From Candidatus Electronema aureum (GTDB lineage: Bacteria; Desulfobacterota; Desulfobulbia; Desulfobulbales; Desulfobulbaceae), in contig NQJD01000013.1 in NCBI GenBank assembly GCA_004284765.1, positions 24,701 through 48,700 of the forward strand: a stretch of DNA of 24,000 bases. Reading direction: 5' to 3'. Position 1 is the first letter of the stretch; every line of letters begins with the position of its first letter. The translations under genes and the position numbers were made by a program. The notes beneath the pieces were generated by a model, which saw only the letters and a program-made list of their open reading frames with translations, ran no database searches and was not told where the DNA came from. Positions 1,905 to 24,000 of this stretch are shown here, in pieces.

Positions 1905-1911
1905 GGTATGT

Positions 1912-2577
1912 TTATATTTTTCTCAATCTCGTACTCGGTACTTTTGAACGTTCAGTTGCTGTACTAATATATACACCTTCTGGTTCTGTATCAGCCAAGA
2001 GGAGCGCGTTAGCCCCAATGACGCATCTATCTCCTACTTTGATGTGATCACGTAATGTTGCATTTACACCAATAAAACATTGTTCGCCAATTTCAACACC
2101 TCCAGAAATAACCACATGAGATGATATAAAATTATGATCCTTTATTACCGAGTGATGACCAATATGATTTCCGCTCCAGATAGTCACGTTGTTGCCGATA
2201 GTGACAAAAGGCTGAATAGTATTGTCTTCTAATATAAAACAATTTTCTCCGATCATCCCCTGATTAAGAACTGTGGCTTTAGGGCTAATAAAATTAGCAA
2301 ATTGATATCCTAACAATTTTGCTTTGATATATTTTTCTTTCCTTACAGCATTAAGTTTTGAATAACTTAATGCCACAAAAAAAGCGTGATCTGTCGGAGG
2401 ATAGAACCTCAATACATCTTCAAACGCAACAACAGGAAGATCGCAAAATTTGTGTTCTTTTATATATTCTGCATCAACTACAAAAGCTACAGTTTGGCAT
2501 TCTGAATCAGTGCTGAAATAAAAATGAGCAATCTGGGCAATGTCTCCTGTGCCAAAAATAACAAGTTTTTTTTTCAT
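1912..2577 (-). CDS. NeuD/PglD-type sugar N/O-acyltransferase (left-handed beta-helix, hexapeptide repeats)
   Basis: The N-terminus has a Rossmann-like MKKKLVIFGTGDIAQIA. The C-terminal part carries hexapeptide repeats (IGENCFI..NTIQPFVTIGNNVTIWSGNHIGHHSVI..HVVISGGVEIGEQCFIGVNATL..VGDRCVIGANALL). The ATG at 2575-2577 overlaps the upstream stop (ATGA). The ORF-track start at 2661 was rejected as an extension. Confidence 0.85.
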   Translation of the reverse strand: MKKKLVIFGTGDIAQIAHFYFSTDSECQTVAFVVDAEYIKEHKFCDLPVVAFEDVLRFYPPTDHAFFVALSYSKLNAVRKEKYIKAKLLGYQFANFISPKATVLNQGMIGENCFILEDNTIQPFVTIGNNVTIWSGNHIGHHSVIKDHNFISSHVVISGGVEIGEQCFIGVNATLRDHIKVGDRCVIGANALLLADTEPEGVYISTATERSKVPSTRLRKI

Positions 2578-3209
2578 AGTATTTTTTTCACAATAATTGT
2601 AAATTCGTAAAGACCGTAATCGTGTAACAAGGATACATTTTTTGAGTATAATCTCTTGCAACGATCAAACAGTACACAAGGATCAGCGTAATAAAGATAA
2701 TCACGTTTTTTATCAGTATCAGAATATGATGTTAAGCAATTAAAGGCGAATCCAACGCGACTCGTTCGATGCAGGTCGTCTAAAACAGAATGAATGTAGT
2801 CGCTCCATTCAGCATTCGTCTTTTCAAGACGGACATTAAAAATACCACTTGCCATTCCATAATCGGCATTTTGGTCAGGATGAGACGAGATAACAAACCT
2901 TACTTGCGATCCGCGCTGACAATGCCGCGTTGCGGCTTGAATCATCTCACGAGATACATCAATTCCAATATATAAAAATTCCTGATATCTACTTAGGAGG
3001 AAATGGTAAAATGCCCCATAGCCGCAACCAAGGTCATTCAAAGAAAAATTTGAATCTGTAACAATAAGTTTACAAAGTTGTTCAAAGCGGATCGTTTGAC
3101 TTTCGTGTCCATTCCAATCGACACCTTGAGGCGTCTGTCCATGCTGCGCAAGTTTTTCTGCGTAATAAGCAGCAACATCATTAAGAAGATCAACTTTCTT
3201 TTCTTGCAT
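2574..3209 (-). CDS. Class I SAM-dependent methyltransferase
   Basis: Motif I LNDLGCGYGAF is followed by YIGIDVS and an acidic loop. Start chosen at ATG 3207-3209 (MQEKKVDLL..), which overlaps the upstream GT2 gene by 20 nt. Confidence 0.85.
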   Translation of the reverse strand: MQEKKVDLLNDVAAYYAEKLAQHGQTPQGVDWNGHESQTIRFEQLCKLIVTDSNFSLNDLGCGYGAFYHFLLSRYQEFLYIGIDVSREMIQAATRHCQRGSQVRFVISSHPDQNADYGMASGIFNVRLEKTNAEWSDYIHSVLDDLHRTSRVGFAFNCLTSYSDTDKKRDYLYYADPCVLFDRCKRLYSKNVSLLHDYGLYEFTIIVKKIL

Positions 3210-4119
3210 AAATTTCTCGCACGATGGTATAAGGCCGCTGCTTCGTTTCCGAAAAAATTTTTGAAAGGTAAATACCAATCACGCCAACAAAGGAAATTAT
3301 CATGCCACCAAGCAACCATATTGAAGCCATGATCGATGTCCATCCGCTCAACGGTTTAGCAAGAAATGCCAAATGCACAAGCAACCAAGTAATATAGCTT
3401 ACAGCAAGAAAAGAAATAATAATTCCAATGTAAAAAATGATAATCAATGGAGCATTACTGAATGAAGTTACTGAGTTGACCAATAAAGCCATTTTTCTAC
3501 GTAAAGTATATGTTGTTGCACTCTCACTGTACTTTTTTATAAAATGAGGTTGTTGATTAAAACCAGTGATTTGCCAGAGGCCTGCTATTAAAATTTCTCT
3601 TTCTTTATGGAGTAATAAAGAATCAACGTAACGTCGTGTCATTAATCGTGCTGTAACGGCATTTTCAGGCAAAGAGAGTCCTGTTAGGATGTTAAATAAA
3701 CTATAGAATAAACTTCCGCTCCAACGCTCAAACCATCCCCCTTTGCGCTGTTCTTGAACCCCATAAATCACATCGCAGCAATCTCTTTGCATCTGCATGG
3801 AAAAGCTGATTAGATATTCTGGCTCTTCTTCAAGATCACTGTCGATTAAAAAAATTTGTTCCCCTTTAGCATAGGAAAGTCCTGTCATCATCGCTTTGTG
3901 ATGGCCAAAATTACGAGAAAGATCAACGAGAATAACGTGATGATCACGCACGGTAAGTTCTATGGCCAGCTCAAGACTCTTATCAGGCGAGCCGTCATTG
4001 ACGAAAATAATTTCATATTCTTCGTCAACGATCTGGCGGGCCACTGCACTTGCCCGTTCATGGAATTCTTGAATATACGGGGCAGATTGATAGAGAGTTG
4101 TGACAATAGAAAGCTTCAT
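3190..4119 (-). CDS. GT2 polyprenyl-phosphate glycosyltransferase (GtrB/ArnC-like) with C-terminal transmembrane pair
   Basis: The start [15 protein letters not shown], then [10 protein letters not shown] and LIDSDLEE (DxD), are GT-A signatures. Two hydrophobic helices lie near the C-terminus ([21 protein letters not shown]; [23 protein letters not shown]), as in bactoprenol glycosyltransferases. The ATG at 4117-4119 overlaps the upstream stop (ATGA). Confidence 0.88.
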
Positions 4120-4811
4120 GGAAGAATATGTTTCATATAATGACATGCTTCTTTGCCACAATTAAACAAAAGATCAAGAATCGTTACGCCATGCTTGAAA
4201 TTTCCCCAAAGTTGTGTATATTCAGGGTAGCCTGCATAATCAAACCATGTCAATTTGATGTTCATATCACGGAACACCTGTTCTTCGATATAATTTTTAG
4301 CAGCTGGGCCTGAAATATATTCAGTGCCGCCTGCCTGCACACAAAGATCAGCTAACCGTTCAGTTTTACTGTTGATCAAATTGTAATCACTTGAATGAGT
4401 GATAGCAGTTTTGATCCCCAAGTAATGACAAATAGCTTTAATAAATTTTCGATTAAGTTCGGATAGACCACTATATGACTCGCCAAGATACAGCGGCTCA
4501 AGCCATTCAGCAATTTCGCTAAAATGTTCTGCCCGACGATAGTTCATCATTAATTTTTTCCAATGATCTACAGCCCAGTCAGTTCCATCAATTTCAGTTT
4601 CATTTATTTTCTGATAAAATTTACCTTTTACTATAACTGGAACTGTCATCCATTGGACACCTTGTGGTGTTTTAATTTGATTTCTATTTCGCCAGTCTCT
4701 TCGGGTAAACTGCATGTCGTCATAAAGAATAAATTCATCAACAGCGGCAATTATATCAAAGTAGCCCTTCCAAGGAATATAATTTGATTGAATAATAGCT
4801 ATTTTTTTCAT
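4116..4811 (-). CDS. WbqC-family protein (polysaccharide-cluster protein of unknown biochemistry)
   Basis: [21 protein letters not shown]...[21 protein letters not shown] matches the WbqC-like N-terminal signature as I remember it. It is the first gene of the minus-strand operon. Start chosen at ATG 4809-4811; ATG 4830-4832 is an alternative. Confidence 0.75.
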
Positions 4812-4966
4812 ATATTTTTTGTTGCAACGCATCGTATATGATACCGATACTGTTTGTGATAAAGTAGCTCACGTCGCGAATATTCCTCTTCAGTCCTTCT
4901 TGCGCTGTCAGCGACAGAATTGAGGGGTAAAATTACCATGTTTCCTTCTTTGCTCCCAGTAAATAA

Positions 4967-7245: not shown

Positions 7246-9729
7246 TCAAATGGAAACCGCTTTAGATCGTCTCCGCAAGAGTCGTAATGCGTACTGACTG
7301 CAAAGAATCAGTCCGAAACCAGCAATCACCAAGAAAAACAACTCAGATAAACCGATATGAAGTGCTATCCAGGCGACACCGATCACCGGTAAAAGTAGCA
7401 TTCTCACGGCAAAGCGCAAGGTATTATGCTGACTGATGACATCAGCAATCGATGGAGAATGCTGATAATAAAAATTGATTAAAGAACGGCTGACTGCGTT
7501 ACCGGACATGAATTGATCTCGGAAATCGCGAAGTATCTGTACCGCAGGATCGAAGACCGAACCAAAAGCGGCGGTTGCGATAAAGCAAGAATCAGCTGTT
7601 CTGAAGCTCACTTGGTTGCCATAATAGGTTGTGCCGCCGCTGACTGCATAGGCGCGTGCATAAAAGAAGGTGCCGGGCTTCAGATTTTTCAGCTTACTGC
7701 TGAATGCGCCACTGCCGCTGCCTGCGCTCGTGTTTCCTTCTTCGAGAAATTTGGTTTCGCTGGTAGTAGCTGTTGCATCAGCTGTGGTACTATCTGCGGC
7801 GATGGCTGTACCTACGAAGAAATTGCCGACATTCTTCAGTGCATTGTTTACCATTTTCTCATAATCTACAAATAGCTGATAAGAATACGTAGGATCGGTT
7901 GCGGTGATAGTTACGGCAAAAGAAATAATACCATCTGTTGTGTTCACCGCTCCGCTGGCCGTATTCTTGCAGCGAACGTAGTATTTTTTTTCTCCATCTT
8001 GCAAGTTGGTGACAAGCTGTGAATGTTCCTTTGCTCCCGTCGTGGCGAATGTGCTTGCCATTTGATCGTAATCCTTGTTCGGCGTGATATTATCATACTT
8101 ACAGGTCGCGTTCACATCCGTTGACAGGCTCAAGGTCGCATAGGCCGTGCTGATATCGCCGTTGCTGGGGGACAGATTTGACATCACCGGAGCATTATTG
8201 CTTGTGTTACTGTTTGATGAAGATGATGACGAGCTGCTTGCTGAAGATGTCAGCACGGGATTAGGCATCGTACCAAAGACAAGGCCCCGTTGGGTGACAT
8301 TGCTCAGGCCGTTAAGCACCTCAGCCGGAATAATAACCGTGGTTCTGGTCAATTCATACGGCGTACCAGTTAGGATATACTGATTGCCTGTATTCACATC
8401 ACTCAACGTATTGATACCTAATACATTATTGGCAGTCGTGCTGCTGTTTGCTGCTATTGCCGTCGTGTATTTGCTCACTGCTGCTGCACTGGAACCCGCA
8501 GCTGCCTTGCTCTCGCCCACTGCCACTACGCTATTCTCAGAAACTGCGGCCAGCGCGGTTGAAGTGTCTTTGCCGCCGCTGAAACCAGTGGTCACGACAG
8601 CGGAAGTAGTAAATTGCGCGGAGTTTTCCTGCGCCGCACCCGTATCTTTGCTGTAGGTGATGAGAAGAAACTCGCGCTGCTGATCAACGGTTTTGAACCC
8701 AGCAGCTACAATTGTTTCATCGATAACAACAACATCATACAGCACATCATCTTGAGTTCCGACAGCAGTGGCTAATACGCCTAAGTCGCTGTCCGGGCGG
8801 CCTTCAGCAGTGAAGCGGAACAGAGCCGCGTCGCGTTTGTTTTCCTTGCCGACTGAACCAGCCACCAAGATACCGCCATCCTTGTTGACAAACATGCCAT
8901 AGCCTTCGCTGAACACGCTACTGTCCGGGGGGATGGCAATGCCGTTGTCGCCGAATTCTTTATCTAATTGCCCAGCGGCATCAAAGCCCAGCACCATCAG
9001 GCCGCGCCGCTGTCCGTCGCTGTAGGAGCCGGACACAAGAATGCGCCCGCTCTCGGTCAGGGCCACGCTTTCCGCTTGGGCATCCACACCCACCACGCTG
9101 AGAGAGAAGCCTTCTTTGGCAAAAGATAGGTCGGGTGTGCCGTTAGCCAAATACCGCCCCAGCACCACCACCCTGCCGTTTACCCCTTGGGCGACACCGG
9201 CGATGACAATGCTGCCGTCTTCTTGCACAATCATGTCGGTGATTTCGTCATGACTGCTACCCACTGCTGTGACCGCTATGCCTTCCGCGCCGAAACTGTG
9301 GTCTAAGGTGCCGTCGCTGTTGTAGCGCACTAAAGCGAAATCGCGGTTTTTGTTGCTGCTGTAGCCTCCAGCAAGGATTTTGCCGTCCGGTTGAAGGGCA
9401 AGAGTCAAGGCTTCATCATCAAAGGAGCCAACAGCAGTGGTGACAGTGCCGTCAGAGTTGAACGCAGGATCAATGGAGCCGTCCGGCAAAAGGCGAAAAA
9501 GCATGAAATCCTTGTCCGCTGTTGTGCTGGATGATGAACCCGCAGCAACAATCTTGCCGTCTGGCTGGACAATGACCGCGTTGGCACGGCTTCCGTACAC
9601 GCCCAGTTCCACTGCTACCCGGCCATTAAGGCCGAAATTGACATCAAGAGCGGCGGCGGATGCCTCGGAATAAAAGGCGGCGAGCAGGGCAGTACCAAGG
9701 GCAAGCAAACGGATGGGATGGATATTCAT
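7246..9729 (-). CDS. Large secreted/anchored protein: signal peptide, delta-60-type beta-propeller repeats, Ser/Thr/Ala-rich linker, two Ig/Fn3-like modules, C-terminal CFIATAAFGS motif plus two TM helices
   Basis: The ATG at 9727-9729 gives MNIHPIRLLALGTALLAAFYSEASAAA (signal peptide); the track start at 9738 is TTG. There are at least six ~55-aa repeats with D.xF(G/N)..G..........QPDGKI..AG (LDVNFGLNGRV, IDPAFNSDGTV, LDHSFGAEGIA, PDLSFAKEGFS, LDKEFGDNGIA ..). A poly-Ser run reads SSASSSSSSSSNSNTSNN. The C-terminus is ADSCFIATAAFGS..LRDFRDQF.. followed by two hydrophobic segments. Confidence 0.8.
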   Translation of the reverse strand: MNIHPIRLLALGTALLAAFYSEASAAALDVNFGLNGRVAVELGVYGSRANAVIVQPDGKIVAAGSSSSTTADKDFMLFRLLPDGSIDPAFNSDGTVTTAVGSFDDEALTLALQPDGKILAGGYSSNKNRDFALVRYNSDGTLDHSFGAEGIAVTAVGSSHDEITDMIVQEDGSIVIAGVAQGVNGRVVVLGRYLANGTPDLSFAKEGFSLSVVGVDAQAESVALTESGRILVSGSYSDGQRRGLMVLGFDAAGQLDKEFGDNGIAIPPDSSVFSEGYGMFVNKDGGILVAGSVGKENKRDAALFRFTAEGRPDSDLGVLATAVGTQDDVLYDVVVIDETIVAAGFKTVDQQREFLLITYSKDTGAAQENSAQFTTSAVVTTGFSGGKDTSTALAAVSENSVVAVGESKAAAGSSAAAVSKYTTAIAANSSTTANNVLGINTLSDVNTGNQYILTGTPYELTRTTVIIPAEVLNGLSNVTQRGLVFGTMPNPVLTSSASSSSSSSSNSNTSNNAPVMSNLSPSNGDISTAYATLSLSTDVNATCKYDNITPNKDYDQMASTFATTGAKEHSQLVTNLQDGEKKYYVRCKNTASGAVNTTDGIISFAVTITATDPTYSYQLFVDYEKMVNNALKNVGNFFVGTAIAADSTTADATATTSETKFLEEGNTSAGSGSGAFSSKLKNLKPGTFFYARAYAVSGGTTYYGNQVSFRTADSCFIATAAFGSVFDPAVQILRDFRDQFMSGNAVSRSLINFYYQHSPSIADVISQHNTLRFAVRMLLLPVIGVAWIALHIGLSELFFLVIAGFGLILCSQYALRLLRRRSKAVSI

Positions 9730-9823
9730 AATCAGCAAATCCTGAAGGTGAAGAACGGAGGAAATTTTGTCATCTTACCATAGCTGATTCAGCAGAAAAT
9801 GACAAGTCCTTGTTGCGGCAGCT

Positions 9824-10991: not shown

Positions 10992-11168
10992 ATGATCAGC
11001 CAGAAACTCCTCGAAATTATTGCCTGTCCCAAGTGCAAGGGACAGGTACAGCTCTCTGAAACCCAAGACGGCCTCATCTGCACCGTCTGTCAGCTTGTTT
11101 ATGAAATTCGAGATGATATCCCGATTATGCTGATTGATGAGGCCAAGCCACTGATACAAGCAGCATGA
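10992..11168 (+). CDS. Trm112-family small zinc-ribbon protein
   Basis: MISQKLLEIIACPKCKGQV....GLICTVCQLVYEIRDDIPIMLIDEA is the Trm112/YcaR pattern (CPxC...C..C, then PIML..EA). The internal ATG at 10992 is preferred over the ORF-track start at 10911. Confidence 0.8.
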   Translation: MISQKLLEIIACPKCKGQVQLSETQDGLICTVCQLVYEIRDDIPIMLIDEAKPLIQAA

Positions 11169-11322
11169 AAAAATCAGAAGTTACGTAGGCTTAAAATATA
11201 ACGAATTGATTTTATTCATGAGTTTCTTTTTATGAAAAAGATAACCTGCTTGAATTATTCATTTTGTAATATTGAACTGCGTAACTCCTATTAATTTTTC
11301 GCAAGTCCCATGTTTGAAAATT

Positions 11323-11331
11323 TGATATAAT
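11323..11331 (+). promoter_or_regulatory. Candidate extended -10 promoter element (TGATATAAT) in the long AT-rich leader of the Cys-rich protein gene
   Basis: TGnTATAAT match at 11323-11331. There is no convincing -35. It would give a ~165-nt 5' UTR. This is a pattern match only. Confidence 0.25.
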
Positions 11332-11498
11332 CAATCGGGGTTTGTTATGAATCGGTTTTCTTTTTTGCCTTGCCAGACTGCTGAAGAAATTATATTCTAA
11401 TGAAGAAAAGCTGTTCTCTTATTGTGCTTGTTTTTTCGTAAATACTCGAAATAGATGAGGCATGAGAGAAAAAATTAACAGAAAAGGAGAGTTGGAAC

Positions 11499-12623
11499 AT
11501 GAAAGTGAAGATGCTGCTGCAAACTGCTGCGCTACTGCTTCTATCAGCAGGGCTTGCCCAAGCCGGAGGTACTAAGTTCGGCAAAAAACATTTGACTTGC
11601 GATGATTGTTCAGCAGAGTGCCTGAAAAATCCCTATGCTAAAGGCTGCCCGGATATCTGCAAGTCACCTGATTGTCAGGCATCTTGCAATGACTGCCCGG
11701 CAGAATGTAAGCAGCATCCGGGCGCGAAGGGTTGTCCTGAGATATGTACAGATATCAAATGTCAGTCCTGTGAAGATTGCACCCCTGAATGCAAAAAGAA
11801 TCCTACAGACACAAGCTGCCCAGATATCTGCAAGGACATGAAATGCTACACGTGCGATGACTGCTCGGTAGAATGTGTCATTGATCCTACTGGTAAAGAT
11901 TGTTCTCCAGTCTGCGCTGATCTCGGTTGCAATGTCTGTGATAAATTTCCCAAAGATTGTCCGGCCTCATGCAAGGACAACCCGAACGACCCTGATAAAT
12001 GTCGCGCTGAATGCAAGGATGTTCCTGAAAAATGCTTGCTACCAAAGGGAACCTGCGATGATTGTTCTCCGGCATGTAAAGATGGCACTGAAAAAGATCC
12101 AGAGGCCTGTAAATCTTGTCCGCAGGAATGTCTGCCGGAGTTACCACCGGTTGTTGAGACTGAACGGCCTTTCAAGTTTGTTGGTGATCTCGGCTACTTC
12201 AAGCAGACTGATCCGGCAGATTACATCTTTGGACGGTTCGGCGTAGAATATAGTCCCTTTGCTACAGGCAGCGAATTTGAAAACATCTCTTTCTTGGGCA
12301 TGATTGGTGCTGCCGCACAAGTGAACGGTACAGATGGTGACGATGCGCTATTGCTGGATGTTTTTGCCAACTACAACTGGAAGGCAGGCGATGTTGACGG
12401 CTGGGTCGGTCTCGGTGTGGGTGGCTGGATCACCTCCGGCGATGTGGAAGATGATTCAGGAGACACTGACATAGATGTTATGGCCAACATCGGTGCCCGC
12501 GTCTATGGCGATCCAAAAGATTTCAATGTATCTTTCTTCTTAGAGGTACGCAGTGCGGTTGATGAGTTTGACGGTTTGGCCGAATATGGTCGTTTCGGTG
12601 CAGGTGTTCGCTGCAAGTTCTAA
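11499..12623 (+). CDS. Secreted cysteine-rich tandem-module protein fused to a C-terminal predicted outer-membrane beta-barrel
   Basis: RBS AAGGAGA (11484-11490) precedes the ATG. Signal peptide MKVKMLLQTAALLLLSAGLAQA. Residues 34-211 hold 36 Cys (hand count) in six modules. Residues ~215-374 are Gly/Asp/aromatic-rich with alternating hydrophobic strands and end ..GRFGAGVRCKF (terminal Phe). A strong terminator follows. Confidence 0.8.
   Translation: MKVKMLLQTAALLLLSAGLAQAGGTKFGKKHLTCDDCSAECLKNPYAKGCPDICKSPDCQASCNDCPAECKQHPGAKGCPEICTDIKCQSCEDCTPECKKNPTDTSCPDICKDMKCYTCDDCSVECVIDPTGKDCSPVCADLGCNVCDKFPKDCPASCKDNPNDPDKCRAECKDVPEKCLLPKGTCDDCSPACKDGTEKDPEACKSCPQECLPELPPVVETERPFKFVGDLGYFKQTDPADYIFGRFGVEYSPFATGSEFENISFLGMIGAAAQVNGTDGDDALLLDVFANYNWKAGDVDGWVGLGVGGWITSGDVEDDSGDTDIDVMANIGARVYGDPKDFNVSFFLEVRSAVDEFDGLAEYGRFGAGVRCKF
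11598..12131 (+). repeat. In-frame tandem Cys modules: four ~28-aa (~84-nt) copies of C-x2-C-x3-C-x8-C-x3-C-x4-C, plus two degenerate copies
   Basis: CDDCSAECLKNPYAKGCPDICKSPDC / CNDCPAECKQHPGAKGCPEICTDIKC / CEDCTPECKKNPTDTSCPDICKDMKC / CDDCSVECVIDPTGKDCSPVCADLGC, then two looser 6-Cys units. The copies are diverged at the DNA level, so this is not a recent expansion. Confidence 0.75.
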
Positions 12624-12633
12624 GGTATAAACA

Positions 12634-12668
12634 GGGTCTGCCGGTCGGCAGACCCTTCTGATTTTTTT
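12634..12668 (+). terminator. Rho-independent terminator after the Cys-rich protein gene
   Basis: GGGTCTGCCG-GT-CGGCAGACCC perfect inverted repeat (12634-12655), then a T7 run at 12662-12668, 10 nt past the stop codon. Confidence 0.65.
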
Positions 12669-12825
12669 CCCATTTTTTTCTATATCATCATATTGTGTGT
12701 TGCCTTTTTCTTGCAAAAAGAAAAAGTAAGCTATAAATTATGCAATTAAAGTTGTAATGAGATGACTTTTAAAAAATAAGCAGGCAGGAATCAACCTGTT
12801 TTCACGCTGAATAGAGACGTTTGAT

Positions 12826-13542
12826 ATGGATTTATTAGGAAAAAAGTATATTAAAGTTTCAATCATCATCCCCGCCTATAACGAGGAAAAAACCTTAAAA
12901 ACGGTAATTGATGCCGTGCAGTCAGTTAACCTGCCGTTGATCAAGGAGATTGTTGTCGTGGATGATTGTTCTACTGACAGCACCCGGCAGGTTATGGAAC
13001 AACTGCGCGACGACAACATAGTCAAGATTTTTCATGAAAAAAATCAAGGCAAAGGAGCCGCATTGCGTTCCGGTATTGCCAAAGCGACAGGTGATATTGT
13101 TCTGATTCAAGATGCAGATTTGGAATACGATCCGGCAGAATATCCCAAACTGCTCCAGCCGATTCTGGACGGCAAGGCTGACGTGGTTTATGGTTCGCGT
13201 TTTGTCGGCTCTGAAGCACACAGGGTATTGTATTTCTGGCACATGATGGGAAATCGGCTTTTGACTTTGCTCTCCAACATGTGTACTAATCTGAACTTGA
13301 CCGACATGGAAACCTGCTACAAGGTCTTTCGCAAGGAGATTATTCAGAACATTAAGATTAGAGAAGATCGCTTCGGTTTTGAGCCAGAAATTACGGCAAA
13401 AGTTGCCAGAACTGGATGCCGAATTTACGAAATTGGCATTTCTTATAGCGGACGTACCTATGCCGAAGGTAAAAAGATCGGCATAAAAGACGGCTTCCGC
13501 GCTCTGTACTGTATTATCAAATATCGTTTCCTTGCGGAATAA
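12826..13542 (+). CDS. Soluble GT2 glycosyltransferase of the polyprenyl-phosphate sugar synthase type (Dpm1/Ppm1/YkcC-like)
   Basis: [33 protein letters not shown] (DxD) and [19 protein letters not shown] are typical of short dolichyl/polyprenyl-phosphate glycosyltransferases. 238 aa, ATG start. Confidence 0.85.
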
Positions 13543-13562: not shown

Positions 13563-14417
13563 ATGAACATTCCTGAATTTCCCATCCCCTTTGTCAAAAT
13601 GAGTGGCACCGGCAATGATTTTATCCTCATTGACCACCGCCAGCCGCTGATCGAGCCTGAATCCATGTCCGCCTTTGCCGCTGCTGTCTGCCGCCGCAAG
13701 TTTTCGGTCGGCGCGGACGGGTTGATTCTGATTGAAAATTCTGAGCAGGCTGATTTCCGCTGGCGTTTTTTCAACGCCGATGGCTCGGTTGCGGAAATGT
13801 GCGGCAACGGAGCGCGCTGCGCGGCCCGCTTCGCCTTCATGCAGGGCATTGCTCCGGCGAAAATGCGCTTTGAAACTTTAGCTGGGATCATCGAGGCGGA
13901 GGTTTCTGGTGACGAAGTAGCAGTGAAGATGACCGAGCCTCGTGATCTGCGCCTGCATCAGACCATCAGTGTTAACAACGCGCCGCTCATCATGCACAGC
14001 CTCAACACCGGTGTGCCTCATGCGGTGGTCTTTGTTGACAATATCGAAGAAACCGACGTGTGTGGCCTTGGCAGGGCGATCCGTTATCACGAAGCCTTTC
14101 AACCTGCTGGCACCAATGTCAATTTTGTCCAGAAGCGCGGCGAGGCCTTCAAGGTACGCACCTACGAACGCGGCGTGGAGGATGAAACCCTCGCCTGCGG
14201 CACCGGCTCCGCTGCCAGCGCGATCATCGCCGCCTTGTTGGGCCAAGCTGCCTCGCCCGTCGAAATTATCACCTCTGGCAACGACCGGTTGATGATTTTG
14301 TTCGACCTGAGCAAGGTTAAGGCTGGCGGAACAGGGCCGATTGTTTATAATGTTTTCCTCAAAGGCCCGGCCCGGATTATTTACGAGGGAGAACTGCGCA
14401 ACGAGGCATTGCTTTAA
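13563..14417 (+). CDS. dapF: Diaminopimelate epimerase
   Basis: FVKMSGTGNDFILID, NADGSVAEMCGNGARC (first catalytic Cys), SLNTGVPHAVVFV and ETLACGTGSAA (second catalytic Cys). Full length at 284 aa. Confidence 0.95.
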   Translation: MNIPEFPIPFVKMSGTGNDFILIDHRQPLIEPESMSAFAAAVCRRKFSVGADGLILIENSEQADFRWRFFNADGSVAEMCGNGARCAARFAFMQGIAPAKMRFETLAGIIEAEVSGDEVAVKMTEPRDLRLHQTISVNNAPLIMHSLNTGVPHAVVFVDNIEETDVCGLGRAIRYHEAFQPAGTNVNFVQKRGEAFKVRTYERGVEDETLACGTGSAASAIIAALLGQAASPVEIITSGNDRLMILFDLSKVKAGGTGPIVYNVFLKGPARIIYEGELRNEALL

Positions 14418-14466
14418 TTCAGCAAAAATGAACAGATATTTTTTTCTGTAGTAAAATAGACATATG

Positions 14467-14483
14467 ATCAATATAATATTGAT
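14467..14483 (+). promoter_or_regulatory. Perfect 17-bp palindrome ATCAATAT-A-ATATTGAT containing a consensus TATAAT, 19 nt upstream of the cassette's first gene
   Basis: 8-bp arms are exact reverse complements. TATAAT lies at 14472-14477. No clear -35. It could be a -10 element, an operator, or both. Confidence 0.35.
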
Positions 14484-14501
14484 GCTCAGTCAAATGATAT
14501 T

Positions 14502-15800
14502 ATGAATATAACAAAAAGAGATTTTTTCGTCTCAATTATTCTGTTAATTATTTCCGCTTTTTTTTTCTGTTATGTAAACTTGAGCATTAAGTCATTCGAT
14601 GAATGGCATTCTTTGAAATATGCAACACCAGACAGTAAAACATATCTTGATGTTGGCAGATGGATTTTAGGTGAAAATACATTTGATAATGCAGAAAGCA
14701 GCGTTGCGATAAGACCTTTTTTTTATCCTCTCGTTATTGTAATTTTAGATTCAATACATCCTTTAGCTGTAGCAATATTTCAATTTACTTTATGGCAGAT
14801 TCAAATTTTGATGATTTATTTTTTTTGTATTAAAGTAAGCAGATTATTTATTTTGTCAATTTTAGTCTCGGTGTTAAGTATTGGCATCCTTTCTCCTATA
14901 GGGATATCTTTACATGCTCTCACGGAAACGTTATCATCATTTTTCATTACTTTTTCCATATTCATATTTATCTTTTTTTTGGAAAAAAATTCATACAGAT
15001 ATATTTATGCATATTTATTATCGTTATCTTTTTGTTCCGCAACCAGACCATCTTATATATATGTATATATTTTTTCAATAATGATACTTTTCTTTTTTTT
15101 AATAAAAAAAAGGAAGTTTTTTTATATATGCATACTTGCAACAACATTTCTTCCGATATCATTACAATATTATGTAATGAAGAAACATTTTGATAGCTAC
15201 AAATTATCTTTTATTGATTCCTTTGCTATAAATGATTATTTTTTATCAGGACTTGAGCTGTATAAAAGAAAAGTTGAATTTGATGCTAATAGAAATTTAT
15301 ACATACGAATGGTTCGCGATGCGAGACGTGAATATATGGCAGAAATGATTAAGGAAAAAGGGTATGGAGAAACATCAAAAAAAGTAAAAAGTGATCTTCT
15401 TGCCAGTTTAGTTAATTACCCTAATGAAAGTCTTCGTCAATTTAAAGACTTAATTATTGAAAATTCAATGCAGCCATCATCATTTATTACGGCTAATAAA
15501 AATTTATACATTGCTACTTTTGCTCAAAGCAAACTTCTTTTGACAATAAATATAATTTCTGCTTTATTTTTTTCTGTGATTATTTTTAATAAAAAATATT
15601 TTGCTGAAGAAATTTATGAAAAAAATATCGTATTCAGCTTGTTGATATTTTTCTGCATATATTTTACATATATTTCTACAGGGCTTACCTTCTGGCAAGG
15701 AGACAGATTTATTATTCCTATATACTATGCAAGTATCATGTTGTTTGTGCATCAAACAAGAATGTTTTTTGCATTTATCAGAAATACAAATAAGAAATAA
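14502..15800 (+). CDS. Polytopic inner-membrane protein, candidate GT-C-type (ArnT/PMT-like) glycosyltransferase or related glycan polymerase/ligase
   Basis: 432 aa with roughly 10-12 hydrophobic helices. An acidic motif (SFDEWH) sits in the first extracytoplasmic loop after TM1, as in GT-C enzymes. A ~100-aa soluble helical insert spans residues ~230-335. The gene is extremely AT-rich. The functional call is tentative. Confidence 0.5.
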   Translation: MNITKRDFFVSIILLIISAFFFCYVNLSIKSFDEWHSLKYATPDSKTYLDVGRWILGENTFDNAESSVAIRPFFYPLVIVILDSIHPLAVAIFQFTLWQIQILMIYFFCIKVSRLFILSILVSVLSIGILSPIGISLHALTETLSSFFITFSIFIFIFFLEKNSYRYIYAYLLSLSFCSATRPSYIYVYIFSIMILFFFLIKKRKFFYICILATTFLPISLQYYVMKKHFDSYKLSFIDSFAINDYFLSGLELYKRKVEFDANRNLYIRMVRDARREYMAEMIKEKGYGETSKKVKSDLLASLVNYPNESLRQFKDLIIENSMQPSSFITANKNLYIATFAQSKLLLTINIISALFFSVIIFNKKYFAEEIYEKNIVFSLLIFFCIYFTYISTGLTFWQGDRFIIPIYYASIMLFVHQTRMFFAFIRNTNKK

Positions 15801-15807
15801 TATTAAA

Positions 15808-16383
15808 ATGAAAGAGCCGATCTTTGAACCTGTTTTAAGGAAAATACGTATAGGAAAAGTTATTGATGAAATCAAAAATATTCCAAGATGCAATCTTCTC
15901 GATATTGGATGCGGTTTTAACTATAGTTTTTTGTCTGCGGTGGAACAATATATCGAGCATGGGACAGGTATTGATTTTAAAGTCAATGAAATTTATTCTG
16001 AAAAAATATCAACCATCAAGATGGTGTTAGATGAAACCTTAAACTTCAATGACTGTTCATTTGATGCTGTAACAATGCTTGCTGTTCTTGAGCATATAGA
16101 CAAGCCGATACATATATTTTCTGAAATATATCGAGTTTTAAAGCCAGGTGGAAAATTAATACTTACGGTTCCTGGAAAAAAAGCAAAGCCGTTGTTGGAA
16201 TTTCTTGCTTTCAAGATAGGAATTGTTAGTAGAGCTGAAATAGAAGACCATAAAAAATATTATGATTTAGAAGAGATCAGCCAGCTCGTATTAAATATCA
16301 ATGAATTTGAAATAATAAAGCATGAGCATTTCCAGTTTGGAATGAATAATTTTTGTGTTATAAAAAAATCTATGATTAGCTGA
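15808..16383 (+). CDS. Class I SAM-dependent methyltransferase (cassette gene 2)
   Basis: Motif I LLDIGCGFN, then FDAVTMLAVLEHI and LKPGGKLILTVP. The ATG at 15808 starts 8 nt after the preceding stop. The ORF-track start at 15727 would overlap the membrane protein gene. Confidence 0.85.
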   Translation: MKEPIFEPVLRKIRIGKVIDEIKNIPRCNLLDIGCGFNYSFLSAVEQYIEHGTGIDFKVNEIYSEKISTIKMVLDETLNFNDCSFDAVTMLAVLEHIDKPIHIFSEIYRVLKPGGKLILTVPGKKAKPLLEFLAFKIGIVSRAEIEDHKKYYDLEEISQLVLNINEFEIIKHEHFQFGMNNFCVIKKSMIS

Positions 16384-16390
16384 TTTTTCT

Positions 16391-16668
16391 ATCAAAGAAA
16401 CTGACGTGCTCGGCTTTGGCCGAGTGATCCGCTGTCGCGAAGCCTTTCAGCCTGCAAACACTAACGTCAACTTTGTGCGGACGTGCAGCTTGGCCAAGCT
16501 ACTTCGCCCGTTGAAATTATCACCTCCGGCAACGACCGCCTGACGATTTTATTCAACCTGCCGGAGCATAAGGCTGGCGGAACTGCGCCAATTGTTTATA
16601 ATGTTTTCCTCAAAGGGCCTGCTCATGCGGTCTATCAGGGCGAGCTGACCGCCGAGGCATTGCTTTAA
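16391..16668 (+). pseudogene. dapF: Displaced, diverged and frameshifted 3' remnant of dapF (codons ~161-284 equivalent, with a net 97-nt internal deletion)
   Basis: Hand alignment: 16391-16480 vs 14043-14132 gives 69/90 identical, and 16492-16668 vs 14241-14417 gives 141/177 identical. Both copies end GAGGCATTGCTTTAA. The two halves are in different frames, and the ACGTGS catalytic-Cys region is missing. The 61-aa ORF at 16483-16668 (..SPVEIITSGNDRL..IVYNVFLKGP..) is the tail of this remnant. Confidence 0.85.
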
Positions 16669-16684
16669 ATCCAAGGAGAATGAG

Positions 16685-17575
16685 ATGACAGCAGCACAAC
16701 GAATTCAGGGCGCGATCACCGCGATTGTCACCCCGATGCGCGACGGCAGAGTTGACGAGGAAAGCCTCGTCAATCTGATCAATTTTCAGATCGACAACGG
16801 CATTCATGGCCTCGTGCCCTGCGGCACCACCGGCGAATCAGCCACCCTCAGCTTTGCCGAGCACAAGCGGGTGATCGAGCTGACCGTGAAGACCGTGGCA
16901 GGCCGGGTGCCGGTCATTGCCGGAACCGGGGCCAACAACACTCTTGAGGCCATCGAGTTGACCGAGTCGGCCAAGGACAGCGGCGCGGACGCAGTACTCT
17001 CTGTGGTGCCCTATTACAATAAGCCGAGCCAGGAAGGGCTGTACCGGCATTTCAAGGCCATCACCGAAACGGTGGATATTCCGGTGGTGCTCTACAACGT
17101 GCCAGGCCGCACCGTCACCAATATGGCTCCGGCCACGGTCGCACGGCTGGCCGAGCTGCCCAATGTCATCGGCATTAAGGAGGCCTGCGGCTGCCTGAAC
17201 CAGATTTCCGAGATCATCCGCATCTGCCCGAAGGACTTCATTGTGCTTTCTGGCGATGACTTCACTTCCATGCCCACCGTGCTGATTGGCGGCAATGGCG
17301 TGATCTCAGTGACCTCGAACGTAGCTCCTAAAGCGATGGCCGAGCTGATGGAAGCGGCCCTGCGCGGCGATTTGGCCAAGGCCAAGGAGATTCATTACAA
17401 ATTCTTCCCGCTCATGGGCACGATGTTCTGCTATCCCAGCCCAGCTCCGGCGAAAAAGGCCGTGCATCTGATTGGCAAGATTGCCTCGCCGGAAGTGCGC
17501 CTGCCGATGACCGAGATGGACGAGCCGTCGCTGAACAAGCTGACTGCTGAGATGAAGAAGGTGGGATTGATTTGA
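16685..17575 (+). CDS. dapA: 4-hydroxy-tetrahydrodipicolinate synthase
   Basis: AIVTPM, VPCGTTGES, YYNKP, IGIKEA (Schiff-base Lys) and the overall 296-aa length. RBS AAGGAGA at 16673-16679. Confidence 0.95.
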   Translation: MTAAQRIQGAITAIVTPMRDGRVDEESLVNLINFQIDNGIHGLVPCGTTGESATLSFAEHKRVIELTVKTVAGRVPVIAGTGANNTLEAIELTESAKDSGADAVLSVVPYYNKPSQEGLYRHFKAITETVDIPVVLYNVPGRTVTNMAPATVARLAELPNVIGIKEACGCLNQISEIIRICPKDFIVLSGDDFTSMPTVLIGGNGVISVTSNVAPKAMAELMEAALRGDLAKAKEIHYKFFPLMGTMFCYPSPAPAKKAVHLIGKIASPEVRLPMTEMDEPSLNKLTAEMKKVGLI

Positions 17576-17631
17576 TTTAAGCAGGGGCGGTTGATGAACA
17601 ACTGCCTCTGTTGCTAATATATTGCTGAAAT

Positions 17632-18570
17632 ATGAAGAAAAGACCGAGAATTATTCAGAAAACAAAAAGCCTTTTGCAGAAAGAAATATCATCGATATGT
17701 CCTTTCTGTGATAATGAGGATGTCGATCATTTTCATTTTCATCATATTGATGAAAATCCAGAAAACAACGACATGCTTAACCTCTTGATGCTATGCCCTA
17801 TTTGTCACTCAAAAATTACAAAGGGCGATATAACGAGAGAAGATGTTGAACGGAAAAAGCGAGACATATCAACTAATCAAAAGGACGTTCTTTTGTTTTT
17901 TCAAGAAATAGCTCCGCTTGTATTTGACTTGATTATTTTTGGAGAACAGGAGAAGGATCGTAGCATAAATCCTTGGGTCAGCAGGCTGGAATCAAGATAC
18001 AGCGAGATATCTAACGAATTAAGAAGATTAGCTATTAAAGATGTTTCTATTCAGAAAGGATGGACTGTCTTGTTAGATGAATTGGCAAAGTCTATTGATA
18101 ATTTTGTTAATAGGGAAGTTTGTCTGTATCGCGGCTTAACAGAAGACATTAAAGATGCCGTGGAAAAAGCTAAACACCTCAAGGTATCGATAATTGATCC
18201 TTTTTTCGCTTCACAAAGGGCACCTTTAACACTTAAAAAAGATTTTGCGATGCAACTCAGGATGTTAAAAAGCCTGAATGATAGAGCGGAAATGATGCTC
18301 AACGAAGGAAAAATTGAGGAGTTACAGGGGAAAGTCTCAGAAATAGGTCACGATTTATTGATATTGAGCATGTACAATACAGAGGATTTCCCGAAAGCTA
18401 TAAAAGGAAAATTATATAGCATTTCAAGAGAAATCCATTTAATGGAAACAAAGAGAAATAATCATTCTTTCGATAGACAGGAGTCATTCAGAAATCGACT
18501 CAATGAACTTAGCGGACAATTAAACGCGCTGGCAGTAGAACTGCCGAATGTAACGTATGCAGCAAACTGA
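17632..18570 (+). CDS. HNH (beta-beta-alpha-Me) nuclease domain protein with an unrecognised ~230-aa alpha-helical C-terminal domain
   Basis: The N-terminal ~75 aa read CPFC..DVDHFHFHHID.NPENNDMLNLLMLCPICHSKI. That is a CxxC/CxxC zinc knuckle flanking the His-Asn-His catalytic pattern. I do not recognise the rest (residues ~80-312). The gene is AT-rich relative to flanking dapA/dapB. ATG start. Confidence 0.8.
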   Translation: MKKRPRIIQKTKSLLQKEISSICPFCDNEDVDHFHFHHIDENPENNDMLNLLMLCPICHSKITKGDITREDVERKKRDISTNQKDVLLFFQEIAPLVFDLIIFGEQEKDRSINPWVSRLESRYSEISNELRRLAIKDVSIQKGWTVLLDELAKSIDNFVNREVCLYRGLTEDIKDAVEKAKHLKVSIIDPFFASQRAPLTLKKDFAMQLRMLKSLNDRAEMMLNEGKIEELQGKVSEIGHDLLILSMYNTEDFPKAIKGKLYSISREIHLMETKRNNHSFDRQESFRNRLNELSGQLNALAVELPNVTYAAN

Positions 18571-18585
18571 TTGATCAAAACTGAC

Positions 18586-18617
18586 ATCATAAGCATCTTT
18601 GATCATAAGCATCTTTG
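18586..18617 (+). repeat. Perfect tandem duplication of a 16-nt unit (ATCATAAGCATCTTTG x2) just downstream of the HNH gene
   Basis: Read directly: 18586-18601 and 18602-18617 are identical. Confidence 0.7.
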
Positions 18618-18684
18618 CAGACGTGACCATTGACCTCAAGAATGTCTTTGAGAAAGACTCATTAACAACCCAAGAGAGCCAATT

Positions 18685-19497
18685 ATGACCAAAGTAATTG
18701 TAGCCGGAGCAGCCGGTCGGATGGGCCGCCGCATCTGCGACATGGTGCGGCAGCATCGCGACCTAACCTTGAGCGCGGCCTTTGAACACGCGGACAGCCC
18801 TTTTATCGGCAAGGATGTCGGTGAAGTGGCGGGCTTCGGCGCGACCGGCGTGAAAATATCTGCGGGCTTGGAATCAGTGATTGATCAAGGCGAGGTGATT
18901 ATTGATTTCACCTTCCACAAGGCCACGATGGAATTCATCAAAGTTGCGGCCAAGCATGGCCGGGCAATGGTGATTGGCACCACCGGCCTGACTGCGGAGA
19001 ATATCGCAGTGCTGCGCGAGACCGCCGCAGGCCATTTCCCCTGCGTTCAGTCGCCCAACATGGCCGTGGGCGTGAACGTGCTGTTCAAGCTGGTGGAGAA
19101 AACCGCTGCCGTGCTGGGCAATGCTTATGATGTGGAGATTGTCGAGGCGCACCACCGAATGAAGAAGGATGCGCCGTCCGGCACCGCGCTCCGGCTGGGC
19201 GAAATGGCCGCTGCTGGCTTGGGCCGCAATCTGGCGGAAGTGGGCGTGTATGAGCGGCACGGCATGATCGGCGAGCGCACGGACAAGGAGATCGGCATCC
19301 AGACCATCCGGGCCGGGGATATTGTCGGCGAGCATACCGTCTATTTCGCTGGTGCGGGCGAGCGGATCGAGATCACTCATCGCGCCCACAGCCGCGACAA
19401 CTTCGCACGCGGCGCGGCCTTGGCTGCGGCGTGGGTTGCGGACAAGCCCAAGGGATTGTACACCATGTTTGACGTGCTTGATCTGGGCAATTTCTAA
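18685..19497 (+). CDS. dapB: 4-hydroxy-tetrahydrodipicolinate reductase
   Basis: KVIVAGAAGRMGR (NAD(P) binding), IGTTGL, SPNMAVGVN and EAHHRMKKDAPSGTA (signature motif). Confidence 0.95.
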   Translation: MTKVIVAGAAGRMGRRICDMVRQHRDLTLSAAFEHADSPFIGKDVGEVAGFGATGVKISAGLESVIDQGEVIIDFTFHKATMEFIKVAAKHGRAMVIGTTGLTAENIAVLRETAAGHFPCVQSPNMAVGVNVLFKLVEKTAAVLGNAYDVEIVEAHHRMKKDAPSGTALRLGEMAAAGLGRNLAEVGVYERHGMIGERTDKEIGIQTIRAGDIVGEHTVYFAGAGERIEITHRAHSRDNFARGAALAAAWVADKPKGLYTMFDVLDLGNF

Positions 19498-19527
19498 AAA
19501 ATAGCCTTCCTGCCTCATTGTTCTCCG

Positions 19528-19551
19528 CCGTGGCAAATTTGTTTGCCACGG
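19528..19551 (+). terminator. Stem-loop after dapB (possible weak terminator)
   Basis: CCGTGGCAAA-TTTG-TTTGCCACGG: a 10-bp perfect stem with a 4-nt loop, 31 nt after the dapB stop. The downstream tract is only weakly T-rich. Confidence 0.4.
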
Positions 19552-19612
19552 CATCGTGTTTACCCATCAAATACTTTTCAAAACCCGCTGATTCATAATT
19601 CGCAATAAGCCC

Positions 19613-22724: not shown

Positions 22725-22788
22725 TAAAAATGGCTCTCTACTATTCTTACAACTCCTGAAATTCGTATAGAATTTGCTGGACGACACC

Positions 22789-22935
22789 TATATATAGCTG
22801 AAGCAGCATAAAGTGAACTTGAATGTCATTCCGAGCGGAGCGAGGAATCTCCTCTTCGTCCTTGGCGTGAGATTTCTCGCTCCGCTCGAAATGACAGATA
22901 CGACGGTTAAAATTATGTTGCTCTGGCTATAAATA
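22789..22935. repeat. Nested imperfect palindrome (MITE/REP-like element or structured RNA): inner 27-bp arms, outer 23-bp arms
   Basis: Inner arms: GTCATTCCGAGCGGAGCGAGGAATCTC (22825-22851) vs the reverse complement of 22869-22895, with 25/27 matching and a 17-nt spacer. Outer arms: 22789-22811 vs the reverse complement of 22913-22935, with 18/23 matching by hand. Non-coding. Confidence 0.7.
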
Positions 22936-22955
22936 GAGAGATAGAGTTGATTAGT

Positions 22956-24000
22956 ATGGATAATATCAAAAATCTCAAGTCAACATCTGACGGATGGCGT
23001 GGGGTTACAGCAGATACATTTACCTATAACGAGGTAGGATTAATAGCTTCGGCTATTGCGAAGTATATCCAAGAAAAAGGGTATGCCAAAAAAATCATTA
23101 TCTCCTATGACACGAGATTTCTTGGTGAAAAATTTGCACAAAAAGCGGCTCAAGTATTTAAAGTAAATGGGATTATACCATTAGTCATAAGTTACCCTAT
23201 ACCAACTCCATTGTTATCATTCAGAGTAAATCAACTGGGGTATCCATGCGGCATTTCCATCACAGCATCGCATAATCCATATAATCATAATGGAATTAAA
23301 TTGCGCATGAATTATGGCGGTGCTCCAACGCCTCAAATTATCAAAGAAGTTGAGTCGTTTCTGCCTTTTTCAAGTCCTGAAATCCGCACTGCCGGTGCTA
23401 TCAATTTCGACAATCCTCTAAAAGATTATGTTGAGTACATGAGATCATTAGTAGATATGGAATCTATTCATTCCAGTCAAGCTAAGATTCTTATTGATCC
23501 GATGTATGGCACTACAGCAGGATTGCTAAAAAAAATTCTTGGAACAACATCGGTTGTTGTTGATGAAATTCATACGCATCATGATCCGTATTTCGGAGGT
23601 GTAAATCCTGAACCCCAACGTAAAACGACGTTAGAGTTGCAACAATCAGTATCTATTGGACTTTACGATTTAGGCATAGCTCATGATGGCGATGGCGACA
23701 GATTAACAGCCTGCCTGCCTGATATTGGTTATTTATCTCCGCATGATATTTCTGCGGTTCTTTTGTGGTATCTGGTCAGAAAAAGAAAATTGACTGGAAA
23801 GGTAATTGGCAGCCTTACTCTCAGCAGGAGACTGTCCAGATTGGCAGAATATTTTGGACTGGAATATGTGGAGATTCCCATAGGGTTCCACTATGCAACA
23901 GCTTTAATGCTGCAAGGAGGTGTCTTAATCGCTGCTGAGGAAAATGGCGGCATCGGGTTTGGATTTTATCTGCCGGAAAGGGATGCGACATTGGCGGCAT
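22956..24000 (+). CDS. Phosphoglucomutase/phosphomannomutase-family phosphohexomutase (3' end outside the window)
   Basis: Absent from the ORF track because there is no stop before the window edge. I translated it by hand: MDNIKNLKSTSDGWRG.., ITASHNPYNHNGIKL (phosphoserine loop), AHDGDGDRL (Mg site), AAEENGGIG (sugar loop). The frame is open from ATG 22956 to position 24000. Confidence 0.85.
   Translation, partial: MDNIKNLKSTSDGWRGVTADTFTYNEVGLIASAIAKYIQEKGYAKKIIISYDTRFLGEKFAQKAAQVFKVNGIIPLVISYPIPTPLLSFRVNQLGYPCGISITASHNPYNHNGIKLRMNYGGAPTPQIIKEVESFLPFSSPEIRTAGAINFDNPLKDYVEYMRSLVDMESIHSSQAKILIDPMYGTTAGLLKKILGTTSVVVDEIHTHHDPYFGGVNPEPQRKTTLELQQSVSIGLYDLGIAHDGDGDRLTACLPDIGYLSPHDISAVLLWYLVRKRKLTGKVIGSLTLSRRLSRLAEYFGLEYVEIPIGFHYATALMLQGGVLIAAEENGGIGFGFYLPERDATLAA

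Follow-up and report, generated by a model that had tools for sequence, protein, structure and literature searches.

An HNH nuclease gene with an uncatalogued helical C-terminal domain at a dapA-dapB cassette site in Candidatus Electronema aureum: a putative single-gene anti-phage defense protein

The DNA analyzed here, a stretch of 24,000 nucleotides from the cable bacterium Candidatus Electronema aureum (the window), contains a dap operon into which a gene encoding an HNH nuclease fused to a helical C-terminal domain is inserted. The gene (positions 17632 to 18570, plus strand), an open reading frame (ORF) of 312 amino acids (aa), lies between dapA, encoding 4-hydroxy-tetrahydrodipicolinate synthase (16685 to 17575, plus strand; Pfam DHDPS, E 8e-101), and dapB, encoding dihydrodipicolinate reductase (18685 to 19497, plus strand; Pfam DapB_N and DapB_C), which form the left and right core flanks of the site. 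The spacer comprises exactly positions 17576 to 18684, and this is the single ORF inside it, on the same strand as the operon. An earlier note, made from the sequence of the window, had described a lone AT-rich gene on the strand of a GC-rich operon, and this description was confirmed, the GC content of the HNH gene being 36.1% versus 58.8% for dapA and 60.6% for dapB. The AT-richness is kept in all orthologs of the HNH gene (34 to 37% GC). About 11 near-full-length homologs of the 312-aa protein were found, with 58 to 93% identity, the top matches being "HNH endonuclease [Desulfobulbus sp. F5]" (93%) and a protein of Candidatus Electronema sp. VV (89%). With these homologs, and with a ratio of nonsynonymous to synonymous substitution rates (dN/dS) of 0.21 to 0.32 against four orthologs, the ORF is a real gene.

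No partner gene adjoins the HNH gene in the window, where its neighbors are dapA and dapB, and neither a PtuA ATPase gene nor zorA or zorB was found next to it in the window or in the orthologous loci. The only methyltransferase gene within 2 kb (Methyltransf_11, 15727 to 16383) is of the small-molecule type and belongs to a separate insertion at dapF, in agreement with the earlier statement that no methyltransferase, immunity, or partner gene is adjacent. Similarly, no methyltransferase gene was present across the dapF-dapA-HNH-pgpA stretch of the Electronema VV locus L001.

The HNH module occupies residues 1 to 80 (17632 to 17871, plus strand) and was recognized by Pfam, PHROG, and PADLOC models. 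The motif string CPFC...HFHFHHID...NNDMLNL...CPICH, which spans residues ∼4 to 67, is present as it had been quoted (SICPFCDNEDVDHFHFHHIDENPENNDMLNLLMLCPICHSKITKGDI). The Pfam HNH model (PF01844) scored 21.1 bits, just below its cut-off of 21.4, and a precomputed PF01844 match exists on many homologs; PHROG HNH families matched the module with an E value of 2e-7, and the PADLOC models ZorE (E 1.3e-5) and PtuB (E 9.5e-4) matched it as well, both confined to residues 9 to 70. In an alignment of the window protein with 21 relatives from Bacteroidota, Geobacter, Gammaproteobacteria, and metagenomes, ten residues (C23, C26, H33, H37, H38, D40, N50, C55, C58, and H59) were invariant in all 22 sequences. 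The zinc ligands are the pairs C23/C26 and C55/C58, arranged as C23-x2-C26 and C55-x2-C58 (McrA/Cas9-like zinc-knuckle subtype), and the catalytic candidates are H37-H38, N46/N50, and H59. The claim of an intact zinc-knuckled HNH motif at the N terminus was thus upheld, as was the conservation of its catalytic His and Asn residues (H37, H38, N50, and H59). By its catalytic residues and its zinc knuckle, the predicted protein can be assigned to the HNH endonuclease superfamily, within which, as judged from sequence comparison, the HNH part is an ordinary, promiscuous nuclease cassette. The ∼70-aa module is 60 to 75% identical in more than 100 proteins from several phyla (P0012 to P0118) and sits at the N terminus, internally, or at the C terminus of otherwise unrelated proteins; a frequent form of ∼228 aa has an uncharacterized C-terminal half.

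The C-terminal domain (C-domain), delimited from phmmer relatives, an alignment (A4), and an AlphaFold2 (AF2) model, is all-helical and comprises residues 85 to 312 (17884 to 18567, plus strand). A phmmer search with these residues against 1.84 billion representatives returned 98 proteins at an E value of ≤1e-3, 35 of them at ≤1e-10; nearly all of the 98 matched over their entire length and have the domain in C-terminal position. The motifs conserved in the trimmed alignment were E-x-E-x-R-x-x-NPW(L)D, LR-x-LA, RA, IG, LHL-x-ET, and DGG-x-S, and the conserved positions were R110, N113-P114-W115, R131, R218, G239, and H269-x-x-E272-T273. Among these, R110 was invariant, and R131, R218, G239, and H269 were almost invariant. 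The AF2 model of the domain, built on 77 sequences, is all-alpha with nine to ten helices (pLDDT 91.2, pTM 0.89). An earlier full-length model, built from 12 close homologs, had reached a pLDDT of 68.7, with the HNH part below 50, and its Foldseek comparison with the PDB was uninformative.

Foldseek searches with the model of the C-domain yielded nothing significant in the PDB (best match a designed repeat protein, E 0.09, TM 0.3) or in BFVD (best E 0.6), and a profile search of PDB sequences hit nothing but de novo designed helical bundles. Scans of 77 or 36 members gave no recurrent Pfam, NCBIfam, or PADLOC model on the domain, and no match to the SAVED, CARF, STING, SLOG, or cNMP-binding families was obtained by sequence or fold. 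Word-index profile searches with A4 and with the family member P0126 added few further members and no named proteins. The homology and structure search proposed for this part of the protein therefore matched no characterized family in Pfam, NCBIfam, PADLOC, PDB, or BFVD. The earlier view of the ∼230-aa remainder as helical and unrecognizable stood insofar as the domain is all-helical and has no match in the curated libraries, but with 98 remote relatives it is not an orphan. From these comparisons, the C-domain is the constant module of a rare, previously undescribed family, which, like its repertoire of effectors, appears uncatalogued.

Several candidate identities were considered for this domain and dropped. 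A PADLOC PDC-M01B match (residues 105 to 293, E 0.067) was not accepted because no member of the C-domain alignment matched PDC-M01B when scanned singly, and hits to Pfam DNA_pol3_delta (E 0.002) and to NCBIfam IscB, sll1863, and PatD were isolated and below cut-off. The R-x-x-H of IGRxLHLxET misfits the Rx4-6H motif of HEPN domains, and its Arg is not invariant. A role as the APAZ partner of a short Argonaute, prompted by the Schlafen, TIR, and HNH heads described below, was rejected since the domain is all-alpha and none of the loci has a neighboring pAgo gene.

The N-terminal partners of the C-domain were counted by Pfam scans of 77 family members. A Schlafen AlbA_2 head was the most frequent (34 of the 77), followed by CAP12-PCTIR_TIR and HNH heads (4 each) and by TIR_2 and pentapeptide-repeat heads (2 each), whereas TIR, SEFIR, protein kinase (Ser/Thr), and cytidine deaminase heads were found once each. 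In the proteins P0010 and P0011, the C-terminal ∼225 aa are retained, but two hydrophobic helices (2-TM) stand in place of the HNH head, and some family members consist of the C-domain alone, at about 220 to 250 aa. The C-domain of the 2-TM protein P0011 shares 76 to 80% identity with those of P0007 and P0008, both HNH proteins, against only 56% with that of the other 2-TM protein, P0010, which is nearest to the window type (66 to 67%). For its part, P0008, encoded at locus L006, is a mosaic relative to the window protein, with 94% identity (dS 0.22) in the HNH part versus 65% (dS 0.81) in the C-domain. Since the C-domain tree conflicts with head type and P0008 is recombinant, HNH and 2-TM heads have been exchanged on near-identical C-domains, and this pattern indicates that head swapping is recent among the cable-bacterial relatives. 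The layout of polymorphic toxins was not found, as the enzymatic module, which varies, is at the N terminus and the constant one at the C terminus, with no conserved downstream gene.

At locus L089 (10001 to 11030), the gene for a stand-alone C-domain protein of 245 aa is separated by 14 bp from a downstream ORF of 92 aa that matches no family. Judging from this arrangement, the pair could represent the system split into two genes.

Among the related cable-bacterial loci, in which dapA is 92 to 97% identical, the site next to dapA carries different cargo. The gene order is dapF-dapA-HNH-pgpA in the Electronema VV loci L001 and L002, dapA-zeta toxin-HNH-pgpA in L003, dapA-Phd-ParE-HNH-dapB in L004, and dapA-HNH in L006; L005, with a 2-TM version, is an unrelated locus beside hypC/hypD. 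A DNA-pattern scan of JGI metagenomes recovered a further locus, L096, whose dapA and dapB are 93% and 90% identical to those of the window and which has other cargo instead of the HNH gene. Between its dapA and dapB, positions 2677 to 4757 (minus strand) encode a HEC-04 homolog and a Uma2 endonuclease. The former, a 498-aa ABC ATPase (ABC ATPase-TOPRIM), matches PADLOC HEC-04 over its full length (E 2e-213), and the latter, of 195 aa, matches PDC-S03 (E 4.5e-50), its stop codon overlapping the dapB start codon. HEC-04 has been experimentally validated as protecting against phages (bioRxiv 10.1101/2024.01.29.577857). Four cargo states between dapA and dapB or pgpA were thus observed, in the window, L003, L004, and L096.

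The window itself bears a scar of the L096 type of cargo. The last 28 codons of a Uma2 gene are present at 18605 to 18688 (plus strand; tblastn, 68% identity, E 4.5e-6) and extend into the start codon of dapB, and the DNA from 18605 to 18757 is 84% identical to that of L096. The same remnant is present in L004. At the junction of the HNH cassette and the Uma2 remnant lies a perfect 16-bp tandem duplication, two copies of ATCATAAGCATCTTTG (18586 to 18617, plus strand). By this scar and its junction, the HNH and HEC-04/Uma2 cassettes are alternative cargoes of one site that were successively replaced. In nearly all other Desulfobulbales loci with both genes recovered (dapA 54 to 74% identical), dapA and dapB are adjacent without an insert, separated by tens to a few hundred bases, and such empty junctions were seen only in these distant Desulfobulbales (dapA ≤74% identical). 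As for vertical conservation at the site, which the earlier note had set against its own proposals, the outcome was mixed: the gene is conserved in the close Electronema-like set but is absent from all other Desulfobulbales examined and replaced in L096.

In L003 (2256 to 2341) and L004 (978 to 1026), the HNH gene has gained an upstream cassette, zeta toxin in the former and Phd/ParE in the latter, and each left a duplicated dapA 3′ end, of ∼77 nt in L003 and ∼50 nt in L004, with different end-points. To judge from these junctions, the additions look like one-sided homologous plus illegitimate recombination, not site-specific integration. A fixed att site in the 3′ ends of dapA and dapF was rejected, given that the end-points of the duplications differ (about 50, 77, and 290 nt) and that no integrase is present. 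In L001 (8956 to 9405) and L003 (3350 to 3799), the HNH gene is followed by pgpA instead of dapB, so that the operon is interrupted exactly at the hotspot. L001 also has IS1 fragments upstream of dapF.

Conserved flanks, varying cargo, and cargo of the defense or toxin-antitoxin kind, the marks of a core-gene-flanked defense hotspot, are all recognizable in these sequences. Most likely, the dapA-dapB spacer of Candidatus Electronema-like cable bacteria is a small hotspot in which cassettes are added or replaced by recombination. It resembles the cDHS of Pseudomonas aeruginosa (PMC10250203) and the defense-island hotspots of Escherichia coli (PMC10121019) in having conserved flanks and variable defense cargo. 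Unlike them, it is very small (1 to 2.2 kb), lies inside a biosynthetic operon and on the strand of that operon, and has no integrase or mobile backbone, its junctions carrying partial duplications, of varying length, of the 3′ end of the upstream gene.

The HNH gene has evolved faster than its flanks at the protein level. Its dN/dS was 5 to 8 times that of the flanking genes (0.04 for both dapA and dapB), and protein-level evolution was about 4 to 7 times faster than that of dapA and dapB, still under purifying selection. In contrast, its dS (0.21 to 0.61) was similar to or below that of the flanks (0.38 to 0.65), from which we infer that the gene has co-diverged with the locus in this clade.

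The neighborhoods of the distant family members were judged on contigs of ≥12 kb, which left four loci; the contigs of P0174 and P0123, for instance, were too short to reveal neighbors. L087 has an IS3 transposase and Abi_alpha; L089 has BrnT, an MmeI/Eco57I-like restriction-modification gene, RHH-PemK, and Macro; L090 has AbiJ_NTD4/Abi_C, nSTAND3, and TerB_N; and L097/L098 has MmeI restriction-modification and HsdM. Thus, defense or mobile genes adjoin all four distant members. No homology was detected among the immediate neighbors of these loci, and no conserved partner was found; since the loci have no neighboring gene in common, the unit would be a single gene.

Taken together, swapped heads on a constant module, defense and toxin-antitoxin neighborhoods, allelism with a validated defense gene, fast but constrained evolution, and the lack of a partner make it reasonably probable that the gene encodes a single-polypeptide anti-phage defense protein of the abortive-infection type. 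Of the two proposals made in the earlier note, a compact nuclease-plus-sensor defense gene and a selfish homing element, the former gained support from the swapped heads, the defense neighborhoods, and the HEC-04 homolog at the same site. In such a protein, the N-terminal zinc-knuckled HNH module would be the effector nuclease and the C-terminal ∼225-aa helical domain a regulatory or sensor module, which, by analogy with DSR2 and CapRel, would keep the nuclease inactive. Recognition of an infection cue, such as a phage protein or nucleic acid, would then release or assemble the nuclease, and the ensuing degradation of DNA would stop phage replication, possibly at the cell's cost. A broader proposal, to which we give a little less than an even chance, is that the helical domain represents a new family of immune sensors or regulators, a plug-and-play chassis for at least seven effector types, with the HNH gene as an autonomous single-gene defense of a type absent from PADLOC, Pfam, and NCBIfam and with effector exchange ongoing between close alleles in cable bacteria.

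Such an organization would have precedents. DSR2 reportedly joins SIR2 to a helical domain that senses the tail tube of phages, and CapRel-SJ46 is said to be a toxin with a C-terminal antitoxin and sensor of the capsid. Like these, the protein is one polypeptide with an N-terminal toxic enzyme and a presumed autoinhibiting and sensing C-terminal domain, and like these, it has no partner gene and is encoded among other defense genes. It differs from them in that the effector is an HNH nuclease, in that the C-domain resembles their sensor domains neither in sequence nor in fold (with the best PDB match in Foldseek as given above), and in that heads are swapped far more widely in its family, which has at least seven types of them. 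The zinc-knuckled HNH module is of the same type as those of Septu PtuB and Zorya type II ZorE, as the weak PADLOC matches indicate; however, those matches cover the HNH core only, no PtuA ATPase or ZorABCD is adjacent, and the C-terminal domain is unrelated. HEC-04, the alternative allele at the dapA-dapB site in L096, is likewise a single-gene nuclease-based defense, but the window protein is unrelated to it and has no ATPase.

Several observations weigh against a defense function of this kind. The C-domain family is rare and known only from metagenomes, and stand-alone C-domain proteins (e.g., P0122, 245 aa) show that the domain can function with no effector attached to it. It resembles no known sensor fold, so that the term sensor is argued from architecture, and its invariant Arg, His, and Glu could instead form a catalytic or ligand-binding site. 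The neighborhood evidence consists of individual observations at four distant loci and at the cable-bacterial site rather than of a statistical enrichment. A dS near that of the flanks marks the gene as a stable resident of the clade, which would be compatible with a domesticated function as well. Finally, the HNH gene has no obvious Shine-Dalgarno sequence, and it would be unusual for a potentially toxic nuclease to be embedded in an essential biosynthetic operon.

Two other explanations, both possible, accept the modular architecture and read it differently. The protein might be the effector arm of a multicomponent signaling system (CBASS, Pycsar, Thoeris, or type III CRISPR-like), with a C-domain that binds a second messenger or a partner, in which case the gene would not be autonomous. 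A variable effector on a constant C-terminal ligand-binding domain is typical of signaling-based immunity, the TIR, HNH, TM, and Schlafen heads overlap those of signaling systems, some family members match the CAP12/Pycsar-type TIR model, and the invariant polar residues of the C-domain could form the lining of a pocket for a ligand. However, the loci examined have neither an adjacent gene for signal production (cyclase, SMODS, Cas10, or other) nor any neighbor in common, and the lack of a match to the SAVED, CARF, STING, SLOG, and cNMP-binding families also speaks against this explanation; we regard a trans-acting signaling role as unlikely. Also unlikely, in our estimate at about one chance in ten, is a fused toxin-antitoxin-like addiction module, in which the nuclease would be the toxin and the C-domain a cis-acting antitoxin, stabilizing a variable island. 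ParE/Phd, zeta, BrnT, and PemK are indeed abundant at the same site and at the distant loci, and the gene is stably inherited with the locus, yet nothing needs stabilizing at a chromosomal site flanked by essential genes on both sides, and TIR, Schlafen, and deaminase effectors are typical of immunity rather than addiction. The separation of addiction from defense is in any case weak, as fused toxin-antitoxin proteins such as CapRel reportedly sense phage.

Two further readings are poorly supported. A free-standing HNH homing endonuclease or selfish nuclease, spreading into the dapA-dapB junction by cleaving empty sites, would account for a lone AT-rich gene on the same strand between conserved genes, for the intact HNH motif, for a left junction (leader) that is identical in several strains, and for the polymorphic occupancy of the site. 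Phage homing endonucleases of the I-HmuI and F-TflI type are said to be similar in having an HNH core and in being encoded by a single AT-rich gene between conserved genes. Nevertheless, tblastn found no relative of the protein in 50,697 phage records or 72,556 plasmids, and pattern scans with the HNH and full-length alignments found none in 2.9 million viral contigs (IMG/VR). No NUMOD, IENR1, HTH, or other DNA-binding module that could serve for targeting is recognizable, and the C-domain is shared with non-nuclease immune effectors and with the 2-TM version at an unrelated locus. The gene is under purifying selection, with a dS similar to or below that of the flanks, unlike homing genes, which go through repeated gain and decay. 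In the one close relative that lacks the gene, L096, the site holds other defense genes and not an empty junction, and the scar of such cargo is kept in the window. The homing proposal of the earlier note was accordingly not supported, and we hold it to be very improbable. The same slender chance is given to a domesticated housekeeping nuclease, acting in DNA repair, recombination, or filament-specific DNA turnover and co-regulated with the synthesis of lysine and cell wall precursors. Such a nuclease would fit the same strand and position of the gene in at least six related contigs, its co-divergence with the host, and the lack of a terminator between it and dapA or dapB. It would not fit the absence of the gene from all non-cable Desulfobulbales examined and its replacement in L096, the elevated dN/dS relative to the flanking genes, the AT-richness of every ortholog, the switch of the downstream partner from dapB to pgpA in L001 to L003, or the immune-type effectors borne by the C-domain relatives.

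If the single-gene defense reading is correct, an uncatalogued sensor domain would be added to the bacterial immune repertoire, and the range of effectors fused to it (Schlafen, TIR, deaminase, HNH, kinase, and membrane helices) would parallel eukaryotic innate immunity. With a confident predicted fold that has no known relative, the C-domain would be a tractable target for finding what is sensed. The gene would also provide a rare view of anti-phage defense in cable bacteria, uncultured multicellular filaments in which abortive infection would have unusual consequences. More generally, the site suggests that a small defense hotspot can occupy an essential biosynthetic operon, with its cassettes exchanged by recombination and without a recognizable mobile element.

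Regarding expression, a 14-bp hairpin without a U-tract (17580 to 17613, plus strand; RNA fold −23.3 kcal/mol, z = −5.0) follows directly after the dapA stop codon. A promoter-like site at 17595 to 17623 overlaps it, although such matches arise at chance frequency, and L001 and L006 retain the leader sequence. After dapB lies the one strong site of the region that resembles an intrinsic terminator (19527 to 19552, plus strand; 11-bp stem with 7 G-C pairs). Since this sole strong site follows dapB, the HNH gene is probably part of the dapA-dapB transcription unit and expressed by read-through inside the dap operon. In the HNH-bearing alleles, termination after dapA may have been lost. A hairpin followed by a T-run, resembling an intrinsic terminator, is present in L003, L095, and L096 at the position matching 17580 to 17613.

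The second insertion, which the earlier note had placed in dapF, was also confirmed. It follows an intact dapF, spans ∼2 kb (14421 to 16390) with a GC content of 24 to 32%, and encodes a 432-aa multipass membrane protein with no family match and the 218-aa Methyltransf_11 enzyme mentioned above. After the insertion lies a degraded second dapF 3′ end, the repeats being located at 14042 to 14420 and 16390 to 16671. The dapF remnant is 93% identical to Electronema VV, whereas the intact gene reaches 84% at its 3′ end; the remnant is thus the native copy, and the cassette arrived bringing a dapF 3′ portion of its own. It had been asked whether nuclease-induced breaks and gene conversion shaped the whole locus. 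No evidence of this was found, as the scars differ from one another (duplications of the three lengths given above and a truncated Uma2 gene), and, from their sequences, such varying junction scars would fit recombinational cassette turnover better than nuclease-induced breaks.

Further AT-rich islands lie in the window at 1000 to 4900, 11000 to 11500, 12500 to 13500, and 22750 to 24000. No Pfam match was obtained for a 303-aa ORF (993 to 1904) or for a 374-aa ORF (11499 to 12623). On the minus strand, the island at 1000 to 4900 carries genes for surface polysaccharides (GT2, WbqC, and a hexapeptide transferase), and a DUF5122 beta-propeller protein of 830 aa is encoded at 7246 to 9738.

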